A DNA stretch of 46,784 nucleotides, taken from NCBI GenBank assembly GCA_002774635.1, contig PEXU01000056.1, positions 1-46,784 on the forward strand, read 5' to 3'. The position numbers were made by a program, and so were the translations under genes. Positions 26,437 to 26,926 of the stretch are shown one piece after another; positions within the stretch are counted from its first letter, which is position 1; every line of letters starts with the position of its first letter. The notes beneath the pieces are model-generated. The model saw only the letters and a list, made by a program, of their open reading frames with translations, was not told the DNA's origin and searched no databases. Source of the DNA: Candidatus Kerfeldbacteria bacterium CG08_land_8_20_14_0_20_40_16. Lineage in GTDB: Bacteria > Patescibacteriota > Patescibacteriia > UM-FILTER-42-10.

Positions 26437-26465
26437 TTGACGAAGGCTAGAATTTCAGCTAGGAT
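26437..26465 (+). promoter_or_regulatory. Putative promoter of the pseudo-tRNA/GIY-YIG/tRNA-Glu unit
   Basis: TTGACG-N17-TAGGAT. Confidence 0.5.
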
Positions 26466-26512
26466 AATTTTACATACCACAAATGGAAATTGAAAATTGA
26501 AAATTATTGCTT

Positions 26513-26583
26513 GGCCCTATCGTCTAGTGGTTAGGACATCAGGTTTTTCCGCCTACGGCGGACCCACCGCAGGCGGGCATCCT
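26513..26583 (+). pseudogene. Truncated 5' copy of tRNA-Glu with a 30-nt tandem palindrome insert in the anticodon loop
   Basis: GGCCCTA-TCGTCTAGTGGTTAGGACATCAGGTTTT[TCCGCCTACGGCGGA CCCACCGCAGGCGGG]CATCCT. Confidence 0.87.
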
Positions 26584-26594
26584 TTCATACACAT

Positions 26595-26873
26595 ATGTAT
26601 TTCGTATATGTCTCAAAAAGCAAAAGAGATAATTCATTGTATATTGGGCAAACTTCGGATTTGCAGAAAAGAGTCAAGGAACACAACCAAGGCAAAACAA
26701 AATCCCTAAAACACAAGACTCCTTTATATCTGATATACTACGAAGTATATAAAAACAAAAAAGATGCAACGAGAAGGGAATGGAATTTTAAACATAAAGG
26801 TCAAGAGCGAGAAATACTAAAAAAACAAATACATAATTCAATCAACAACCCGCCGCCTTCGTCTAGTGGTTAG
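26595..26873 (+). CDS. Small stand-alone GIY-YIG nuclease family protein
   Basis: YFVYV...LYIGQTSDLQKRVKEHN, YYE.Y....A..RE..FK; the stop codon lies inside tRNA-Glu. Confidence 0.92.
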   Translation: MYFVYVSKSKRDNSLYIGQTSDLQKRVKEHNQGKTKSLKHKTPLYLIYYEVYKNKKDATRREWNFKHKGQEREILKKQIHNSINNPPPSSSG

Positions 26874-26926
26874 GACATCAGGTTTTCATCCTGGCAACAG
26901 GGGTTCGATTCCCCTAGGCGGTGCCA
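26852..26926 (+). tRNA. tRNA-Glu(TTC)
   Basis: GCCGCCT/AGGCGGT acceptor, TCAGG-TT-TTC-AT-CCTGG, GGTTCGATTCC, CCA. Confidence 0.95.

Follow-up and report, generated by a model that had tools for sequence, protein, structure and literature searches.

The closest described counterpart of the element analysed here is SegB of bacteriophage T4, a GIY-YIG enzyme that recognises a conserved motif in the T-loop of transfer RNA (tRNA) genes and spreads together with neighbouring tRNA genes (PMC2330249). The present locus lies in a stretch of 46,784 nucleotides (nt) from Candidatus Kerfeldbacteria bacterium CG08_land_8_20_14_0_20_40_16 (PEXU01000056.1; the whole stretch is referred to as the window) and consists, at positions 26437-26926, of a promoter-like site, a truncated tRNA-Glu(UUC) gene interrupted by a 30-nt double hairpin, a small GIY-YIG open reading frame (ORF), and an intact tRNA-Glu(UUC) gene. 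In our view, the locus is probably a homing element of the free-standing endonuclease kind, a cassette that replaces a tRNA gene and brings the replacement tRNA with it. As with SegB, a GIY-YIG gene sits among tRNA genes, the target would be a conserved part of a tRNA gene, and spread would be by break repair; SegB is a phage enzyme with a 27-base-pair (bp) recognition site, whereas the genes considered here belong to bacterial chromosomes and encode a bare catalytic domain of 81-94 amino acids (aa). The overlap of ORF and tRNA, the dead tRNA stubs and the double hairpin also set the locus apart from SegB. Our full-text literature searches found no cassettes of tRNA with GIY-YIG or other nucleases at bacterial chromosomal tRNA genes, and no such palindromes in these bacteria; the nearest work concerns SegB and endonucleases in ribosomal RNA insertions of these bacteria. 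The architecture is class-wide and, it seems, undescribed.

Other known systems share individual features with the cassette. The Allomyces atp6 element and later 'mobile ORF' cases are reportedly mitochondrial endonuclease ORFs that carry a partial copy of the host gene. These fungal elements are said to travel with a replacement piece and to leave the displaced resident piece as a pseudogene fragment, a situation like the present one, but reportedly replace the 3' end of organelle protein genes, whereas here a whole tRNA is supplied and the resident 5' end stays. Group I introns in the anticodon loops of bacterial tRNAs, of which a tRNA-Asn gene described below is a likely example in the same genome, likewise combine an anticodon-loop insertion with a nuclease ORF; unlike these introns, the cassette has no ribozyme, and function would be rescued by a second copy of the gene rather than by splicing. 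The hairpins resemble Rickettsia palindromic elements, reportedly short, dispersed and in some cases in frame within protein genes, and REP/REPIN-RAYT systems, which are said to form hairpin doublets with a copy next to a nuclease-type gene. Compared with both, the present unit of 30 nt is far shorter and its neighbour is a GIY-YIG gene, not an HUH transposase gene, the link between repeat and nuclease being correlative.

The central evidence comes from comparing filled and empty sites in related genomes (labelled G, with loci labelled L; G000 is the 1.1-Mb source genome of the window, and its contigs are labelled C). G001, a genome of the same genus, is syntenic with window positions 24077-26415 and 28241-29329 by tblastx, from a methyltransferase-like gene (Pfam) to the next conserved gene. 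Between these, G001 has the same promoter motif and leader, followed by an intact tRNA-Glu(UUC) that starts with GGCCCTA and has a matching 3' strand, and it has no GIY-YIG ORF. The two genomes show 87% DNA similarity over 114 nt, a stretch that covers the leader and tRNA positions 1-35 and goes no further; the divergence of the leader is 13%, and the 35 nt of the stub are undiverged. Since homology stops after position 35, G000 keeps the head of the resident gene, the rest being an insertion that contains a tRNA-Glu of foreign type. Thus, the upstream piece, which had first been described as a 5' copy, is a remnant of the resident gene, equal to the intact gene of G001, and not a copy made by the element. 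In all, 41 nt of tRNA-Glu(UUC) sequence remain in the stub. Positions 8-35 of the stub match the downstream tRNA at 28 of 28 positions, but the acceptor strands, GGCCCTA in the stub and GCCGCCT in the intact gene, differ at four of seven. This downstream tRNA, whose type is foreign to the resident, is the sole tRNA-Glu(UUC) found in G000. Its foreign type would fit joint inheritance of donor markers next to a homing gene, though the right junction falls in the variable segment behind it.

A second comparison gives the same picture at a different gene in another genus. In G003 and G004, members of a single genus, synteny holds around a tRNA-Glu(CUC) gene that follows a gene with a WYDNEWGY motif, putatively for GAPDH. 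G004 has an intact gene of the GGCCCTA type at this locus, and homology with G003 ends at position 35, the same 35/36 break as in the window. In G003, 1404 nt replace the sequence from position 36 to ~12 nt beyond the tRNA 3' end; the insert comprises a double hairpin at 35/36, the bases CATCCT, an 88-aa GIY-YIG ORF that is 53% identical to the window ORF, a GCCGCCT-type tRNA-Glu(CUC), and two further ORFs. The element is therefore present or absent at one and the same site in related genomes twice over (G000 vs G001, and G003 vs G004), and the empty alleles in G001 and G004 support the sequence-only reading insofar as it proposed a mobile GIY-YIG/tRNA cassette. In a third comparison, at this same locus in G000 itself, a tRNA-Glu(CUC) of a third type in contig C45 (~1290-1560, - strand) is nested in a decayed GGCCCTA-like gene split at 34/35, with both the 5' and the 3' remnant kept; the insert is bounded by GC-rich inverted repeats and has no ORF, and the counterpart gene is intact in G001 and G004 behind the same upstream gene.

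Related genomes also hold forms in which the ORF is reduced or absent. At the locus corresponding to that of the window, G004, which represents a sister genus, has the promoter and a GCCGCCT-type tRNA-Glu(UUC), a type native to this locus there, with no ORF. G005 has a GCCGCCTT stub followed by only the C-terminal part of a GIY-YIG ORF, 64% identical to the window ORF and with an identical overlap into the tRNA. Lastly, the tRNA-Glu(UUC) of G003 is preceded by a stub, hairpins and an ORF shortened to ATGTTTATTTAA. Neither acceptor type is tied to the nuclease. Of 201 genomes sampled across the class, 26 have starts of the GGCCC(T/C)A type; among the 30 loci returned, 23 are simply intact tRNA-Glu genes with no GIY-YIG match, just the form whose presence in relatives had been suggested as a check; the other seven loci, at six places, have a match. 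GCCGCC(T/A)-type starts occur in 19 of the 201 genomes, with no GIY-YIG match at 20 of 26 loci. Given that both types mostly occur without the nuclease, we regard them as ordinary variants of tRNA-Glu.

The arrangement recurs throughout related bacteria. Matches to the window GIY-YIG protein were found in 38 of 41 related genomes, with up to 16 per genome and seven in G000. We examined 66 loci with 75 matches (19 loci returned by the search, the next 40 by E-value order, and seven of the source genome's own). At 35 of the 75 ORFs, the distance from the stop codon to the start of a tRNA gene of the same orientation is -45 to +130 nt; position by itself would place at most 0.4 percent of ORFs directly upstream of a co-oriented tRNA, so the arrangement is not due to chance. 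The distances from stop codon to tRNA cluster at -22 (four cases), -10 (five), 0 (two) and +3 to +9 (11), and in 11 of the 35 the stop codon is inside the tRNA, often as the triplet U8-A9-G10. Upstream of 20 of the 35 ORFs (two of them weak cases) is a stub of the tRNA in question whose first base is position 1 or close to it, and the tRNAs concerned are those for Glu, Cys, Phe, Lys, Ser, Leu, Gln, Trp, Ala, Val and Met; because several of these cases are related to each other, the counts overstate the number of independent events. The order of parts is constant across families: hairpins, 3-12 nt of tRNA, a spacer of 6-19 nt, and the ATG. One locus (L130) has a 5' stub with hairpins, an ORF, an intact tRNA-Pro, and a 3' stub with a second pair of hairpins in its T-loop.

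As the sequence-only reading predicted, junctions are not random. Breaks in the 20 stubs fall at positions 10-21 in the D-arm (14 breaks), at positions 34-37 in the anticodon loop (eight) and at position 54 in the T-loop (one); none falls in acceptor, anticodon-stem or T-stem strands, with the proviso that breaks before about position 10 would escape detection. The proposal that structure directs the targeting goes further than these data, which fit equally well with recognition of conserved tRNA sequence, as by SegB, or with a preference for TT. Comparison of genomes thus shows insertion with replacement relative to empty sites, the foreign type of the tRNA, recurrence across the class and the clustering of junctions, as well as the purifying selection described below.

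All of the parts first listed for positions 26437-26926 were confirmed by direct reading, ARAGORN, Rfam and Pfam (Table 1). The ORF occupies all but 47 nt of the sequence between stub position 35 and the tRNA, whose 5' end it overlaps by 22 nt, with its TAG stop codon in the D-loop; the second of the two 15-nt hairpins has one mismatch. Promoter-like matches are no commoner in this region than in shuffled sequence (four found, 3.2 expected), but the same TTGACG-17-TAGGAT motif precedes tRNA-Glu at the syntenic site of G001, G004 and G005.

Table 1. Features of the tRNA-Glu(UUC) locus, in window coordinates.
Feature	Position	Strand	Remarks
Promoter-like site TTGACG-17-TAGGAT	26437-26465	+	9/12 matches; motif also before intact tRNA-Glu in G001, G004 and G005; putative function
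Stub of resident tRNA-Glu(UUC), positions 1-35, acceptor strand GGCCCTA	26513-26547	+	Identical to positions 1-35 of the syntenic G001 gene
30-nt double hairpin (15+15 nt; 6-bp stems, 3-nt loops)	26548-26577	none	Between anticodon positions 35 and 36 (TT^C)
Remainder of stub, tRNA positions 36-41 (CATCCT), to stub end	26578-26583	+	Six bases identical in G003
Spacer of 11 nt before ATG (26595)	26584-26594	+	
Single-domain GIY-YIG nuclease gene (predicted), 92 aa	26595-26873	+	Stop codon inside tRNA
Intact tRNA-Glu(UUC), acceptor GCCGCCT/AGGCGGT	26852-26926	+	ARAGORN; Rfam, 61.3 bits
Variable segment with ORFs 27170-27868 and 27889-28182	26927-28176	+	Between tRNA-Glu and resumed synteny with G001
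15-nt 3' end fragment of GCCGCCT-type tRNA-Glu (CCCTAGGCGGTGCCA)	28177-28191	+	15/15 nt identical to the end of the intact tRNA

The protein encoded by the ORF matches the Pfam GIY-YIG family (PF01541) over residues 1-70, with E=2.9e-16 and 60 bits against a cut-off of 22.6. We aligned 71 proteins, comprising 64 of the 75 matches and seven from tRNA-Glu loci, having dropped 11 matches that had no clean start, had inner stops or were shorter than 65 aa. The residues that we take to be catalytic are conserved almost without exception: Y16, G18, R26 and H30 in all 71 proteins, and Y5 and E62 in 70 each. The ratio of nonsynonymous to synonymous substitution rates is 0.19, 0.26 and 0.29 in three pairs with unsaturated synonymous sites, and the nuclease is under purifying selection. 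The best matches among solved structures are the stand-alone UPF0213 proteins BH0048 (PDB 1zg2, E=4.2e-7) and EF2693 (PDB 1ywl, E=1.5e-5), which are also of the same size and single-domain, a comparison made by sequence match. We know of no mobile-element role or tRNA linkage for UPF0213 proteins. The two GIY-YIG proteins of the window are, as first noted, clearly diverged, at 42% identity (36/85, E=3e-13). A quick tree of the nucleases (88 columns, weakly resolved) bears on the suggestion that their phylogeny be compared with the identity of the adjacent tRNA: the tree requires 28 changes of neighbouring tRNA, compared with 35.9 in shuffles, none of 200 being as low, and one clade holds five of the nine Glu-linked rows. 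Nonetheless, near-identical ORFs precede tRNA-Ala and tRNA-Val in one genome (L093/L094). Together, these observations indicate that lineages mostly stay with one tRNA and can switch.

The 30-nt insert is a member of a dispersed palindromic family and is not specific to tRNA genes. A strict scan of the 130 nt before each ATG, requiring two adjacent 6-bp stems with 3-nt loops and no fewer than 11 of 12 pairs, found such a pair for 13 of the 75 ORFs, compared with a mean of 1.24 and a maximum of five in 200 shuffled runs; about ten of the 13 are convincing and three look spurious. These upstream pairs are located in the anticodon loop of tRNA-Glu and tRNA-Cys, in the D-loop of tRNA-Ser or in the T-loop of tRNA-Gln. 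Hairpin arms vary between lineages while pairing is kept (96.9% paired, nine of 12 pairs changed on both sides, and none of 500 shuffles as high), a count that rests on eight rows chosen by the pairing scan and so indicates that the shape is kept across sequences, not that it exceeds chance. Two families of the tRNA-Ser lineage share identical 30-nt elements while their ORFs are only ~70-76% identical in DNA; the exact tRNA-Ser pair occurs once per genome in four of five genomes, with mixed relatives elsewhere. An AT-rich pair in G011 has no further copy in that genome. Folding of the hairpin pair gave z-scores of -1.56 as RNA and -3.16 as DNA, with outer arms of both hairpins paired in the best fold, values that do not decide between two hairpins and one long one, or between RNA and DNA.

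Allowing up to two mismatches, two successive copies of TCCGCC-NNN-GGCGGA were found in 27 of 41 genomes, with up to 19 occurrences per genome, and the reversed control gave none. When one locus was taken per genome, the hairpin was in frame within ORFs of at least 300 aa at nine of 27 loci, encoding SA(K/R/Q)GGSA(S/F/L)GG or nearly so, and seven of 27 loci were within 60 nt of a tRNA gene. In G000, in-frame copies at C38:7158-7187 and C58:7936-7965 add SAQGGSASGG to two long ORFs, whose products, judging from their motifs, are presumably ATP synthase alpha and glycyl-tRNA synthetase; in G004 (L147), the protein resembling glycyl-tRNA synthetase carries this insert at the corresponding site. 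The number of hairpin copies and that of GIY-YIG matches are correlated across the 41 genomes (Spearman 0.54), and the hairpin family occurs in none of the three genomes without GIY-YIG matches compared with 27 of the 38 with them, neither comparison being corrected for kinship or genome size. As observations in their own right, the element is preceded by TT at 11 of 14 sites (those of G000 and L128-L151), a 13-nt direct repeat flanks an intergenic copy (L151), and the window holds a second member of the family at 20224-20253, between ORFs 19565-20191 (-) and 20265-20537 (-).

We propose that the mobile unit is a GIY-YIG gene joined directly to a complete tRNA-Glu(UUC) of its own, at the tRNA's 5' end, with the double hairpin in front. 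The unit has entered a resident tRNA-Glu(UUC), of which the promoter, positions 1-35, the hairpin insert and positions 36-41 are left. There is no other + strand promoter-like site, and no terminator-like site, between the resident promoter and the new tRNA, so the stub, ORF and tRNA are probably transcribed as one RNA from the resident promoter. Co-transcription from the tRNA promoter, as in the sequence-only reading, is thus a sound expectation given the conserved promoter upstream, though the transcript itself is a prediction. RNase P cleavage at the tRNA 5' end would remove the stop codon of the ORF, such that full-length protein would be made from unprocessed precursor only. By analogy with SegB, the nuclease is predicted to act by cutting cassette-free tRNA genes in or near a loop. 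A cassette-bearing copy would then be the template for repair of the break, homology being provided by the stub on the left and by the tRNA on the right. A self-splicing intron would not be needed, since a working tRNA comes with the cassette. Cassettes would then decay by loss of the ORF, as suggested by the partial ORF of G005, the shortened ORF of G003 and the absence of an ORF in G004; further rounds would stack stubs upstream. Indeed, an older tRNA stub lies upstream at the tRNA-Glu(CUC) locus in both G003 and G004, pointing to successive rounds of invasion. The hairpins may serve as a recognition structure, protect the stub site, act as an RNA element, or be an independent parasite.

A number of observations weigh against this proposal. 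Over positions 8-35, the stub matches the adjoining intact tRNA exactly, which leaves the carrier's escape from its own enzyme unexplained, and the cleavage step is predicted by analogy. The protein has no second Pfam domain; 70 of its 92 aa are the catalytic domain, with no separate DNA-binding domain. The homing enzymes I-TevI and Seg carry such a domain, and we take SegB in particular to have extra DNA-binding parts that the window protein does not. Forty of the 75 ORFs have no annotated tRNA directly downstream, although some of these face a hairpin-disrupted tRNA (C4 of G000) or the end of a contig. Tree topology agrees only partly with tRNA identity. Some tRNAs that have been replaced and have stubs lack any ORF (C1, C49, C54, C12 and C45). 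The right-hand junctions are not within the tRNA, and G000 and G003 carry different cargo. Finally, 25 of the 27 hairpin loci have no GIY-YIG gene within 1.5 kb, the other two having a match in the 3-kb locus.

The main alternative is that the GIY-YIG gene is a passenger, lodged between a strong tRNA promoter and the tRNA so as to be expressed, and that tRNAs are replaced by other means, such as small tRNA cassettes with palindromes at their borders that some other enzyme or recombination would move. Several of the observations above fit this view, which we nonetheless judge unlikely: GC-rich inverted repeats border the ORF-less replacements in C54 and C12 (in the D-loop) and in C45 (in the anticodon loop), the D-loop of one stub (L005) holds a 20-nt palindrome of that repeat type, members of the hairpin family are scattered with no ORF close by, and near-identical ORFs precede tRNA-Ala and tRNA-Val (L093/L094). 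Against it stand the fixed order and spacing of ORF, hairpins and stub end across families; moreover, the ORF-less forms include clear deletion products of ORF-bearing ones, the three genomes without GIY-YIG matches have no hairpins either, and copy numbers of the two correlate, with the reservations as to kinship and genome size given above.

A broader version of the replacement-cassette proposal is a possibility that we put forward tentatively, and as a whole. Ultra-small bacteria would host a two-part mobile system that combines a bare GIY-YIG enzyme of 80-95 aa (UPF0213-like), autonomous nuclease-tRNA cassettes, and non-autonomous hairpins and mini-cassettes. The cassettes would repeatedly overwrite tRNA genes, leaving layered stubs and keeping the tRNA set in continual horizontal exchange. 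The nuclease would recognise by shape both the 30-nt hairpins and tRNA mini-cassettes bounded by palindromes, with spread to tRNA loops and, in frame, to essential genes.

We also considered an integrative island with an attachment site in tRNA-Glu, in which the stub and the fragment at 28177-28191 would be att-type repeats. That fragment is a direct repeat of the tRNA 3' end located 1.25 kb downstream and identical to it, and the intervening segment is wholly unlike that of G001, where a comparable tRNA-Glu fragment lies 155 nt behind the tRNA-Glu and the segment carries a different ORF, of 402 aa. Yet neither ORF of the window segment (27170-27868 and 27889-28182) has a family in Pfam, NCBIfam or PHROGs, so that neither matches an integrase or recombinase family. 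Integrase-mediated duplication copies the 3' part of a tRNA, which would leave a 5' stub of the other acceptor type with an anticodon insert unexplained, and the unit of stub, ORF and tRNA occurs elsewhere with other cargo or with none. An island is therefore improbable as an account of the stub; an integrase island may explain the 15-nt 3' fragment and the variable segment, which may have arrived with the cassette or else be a separate island.

Still less probable is a scheme with nothing mobile, in which tRNA-Glu was duplicated in tandem on the spot, the upstream copy decayed and repeats were inserted by chance. Many fragments do surround tRNA genes in G000, but simple decay does not account for four differences in seven acceptor positions alongside identity over positions 8-35, for a stub equal to the intact gene of G001, for the same junction at a second locus in another genus, or for the same order of parts at no fewer than 12 tRNA species. 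A reading of the stub as one half of a tRNA that is split or contains an intron, or as a functional leader resembling a tRNA, with removable hairpins, is very improbable. In its favour, the inserts sit in loops, as do archaeal tRNA introns, and the stub is undiverged from G001 over 35 nt next to a leader that differs by 13%. Against it, gene conversion from the intact gene can explain the identity over positions 8-35, the stub ends at position 41, and the assembled genome has no match for a T-arm and strand that would pair with GGCCCTA. A search of 26400-27000 against Rfam at E up to 1 gave only the tRNA; with no ribozyme core in this interval, a group I intron with an endonuclease ORF is unlikely.

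Fusion of two tRNA-Glu loci by misassembly through their common 28 nt is barely credible, since the other way of joining them would leave the acceptor stem of the tRNA unpaired, independent assemblies of G003, G011, G160, G198, G085 and others show the architecture too, and the depth of the ORF piece equals that of its flanks in run X3 (10.8, with flanks of 11.6 and 12), even though contigs of other runs break within the repeat. Positions 26524-26885 are present without any difference in contigs of two other runs, X3 and X8, which end inside the 28-nt repeat; X14 and X22 include bins that lack cover over the ORF, which carry no evidential weight. No contig joint that cleanly removes the cassette was seen among those of other runs, and the joints listed, which have short sides or intervening letters, most likely come from tRNA-Glu genes of other organisms. 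Labels of the sequencing runs place the organism in groundwater or aquifer samples, and the membership of the candidate phyla radiation assumed in the sequence-only reading fits.

If the replacement-cassette proposal is correct, it would describe a third way for a homing-type element to persist in an essential gene while its host survives, using neither a self-splicing intron nor an intein but a spare copy of the gene, and would give a very common family of tiny GIY-YIG proteins its first biological role. It would also explain the fragments that ring tRNA genes in these small genomes, and perhaps the breaks in assemblies there. tRNA genes, including the identity elements of their acceptor stems, would be swapped between lineages, with stacked stubs as a readable record of past invasions; the in-frame 30-nt palindromes, for their part, add ten residues to conserved enzymes.

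Further tRNA debris is found in the window and elsewhere in G000. Near the start of the window is a second cassette, at tRNA-Lys, with a stub at 256-349 that contains two GC-rich inserts, a GIY-YIG ORF at 352-606, and an intact tRNA-Lys(CUU) at 679-755. It had been described as having the same architecture as the tRNA-Glu locus, but the resemblance is looser: its inserts are different, and a 72-nt gap between ORF and tRNA holds the start of yet another tRNA. Hairpin-riddled, tRNA-Lys-like debris lies at ~60-250 and 790-890, and the contig begins inside it. The gene downstream (1144-1992), which we take to resemble that for orotidine-phosphate decarboxylase, has no match in the five closest genomes, so there is no syntenic site for comparison in these. 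At C1:38000-38130 and C49:150-340, tRNA-Pro(GGG) and tRNA-Pro(CGG) each follow a stub that ends in the anticodon, with hairpin inserts and no ORF. At C54:23333-23597 and C12:41900-42150, intact tRNA-Leu(CAG) and tRNA-Arg(CCG) genes are found inside the D-loop of a decayed tRNA with the same anticodon, bounded by inverted repeats of the CCTGCCCGCC type and without an ORF; in another genome, the CCTGCCCGCC-type repeat is the bare D-loop palindrome of L005. A GC-rich interval at window positions 5392-5667, between tRNA-Leu and tRNA-Val, includes a 19-nt 3' fragment of tRNA-Leu at 5536-5554. Lastly, the anticodon loop of tRNA-Asn(GUU) at C59:1780-2396 (-) is split by 542 nt that include an ORF with an HNH-like motif, an insert that is probably a group I intron.

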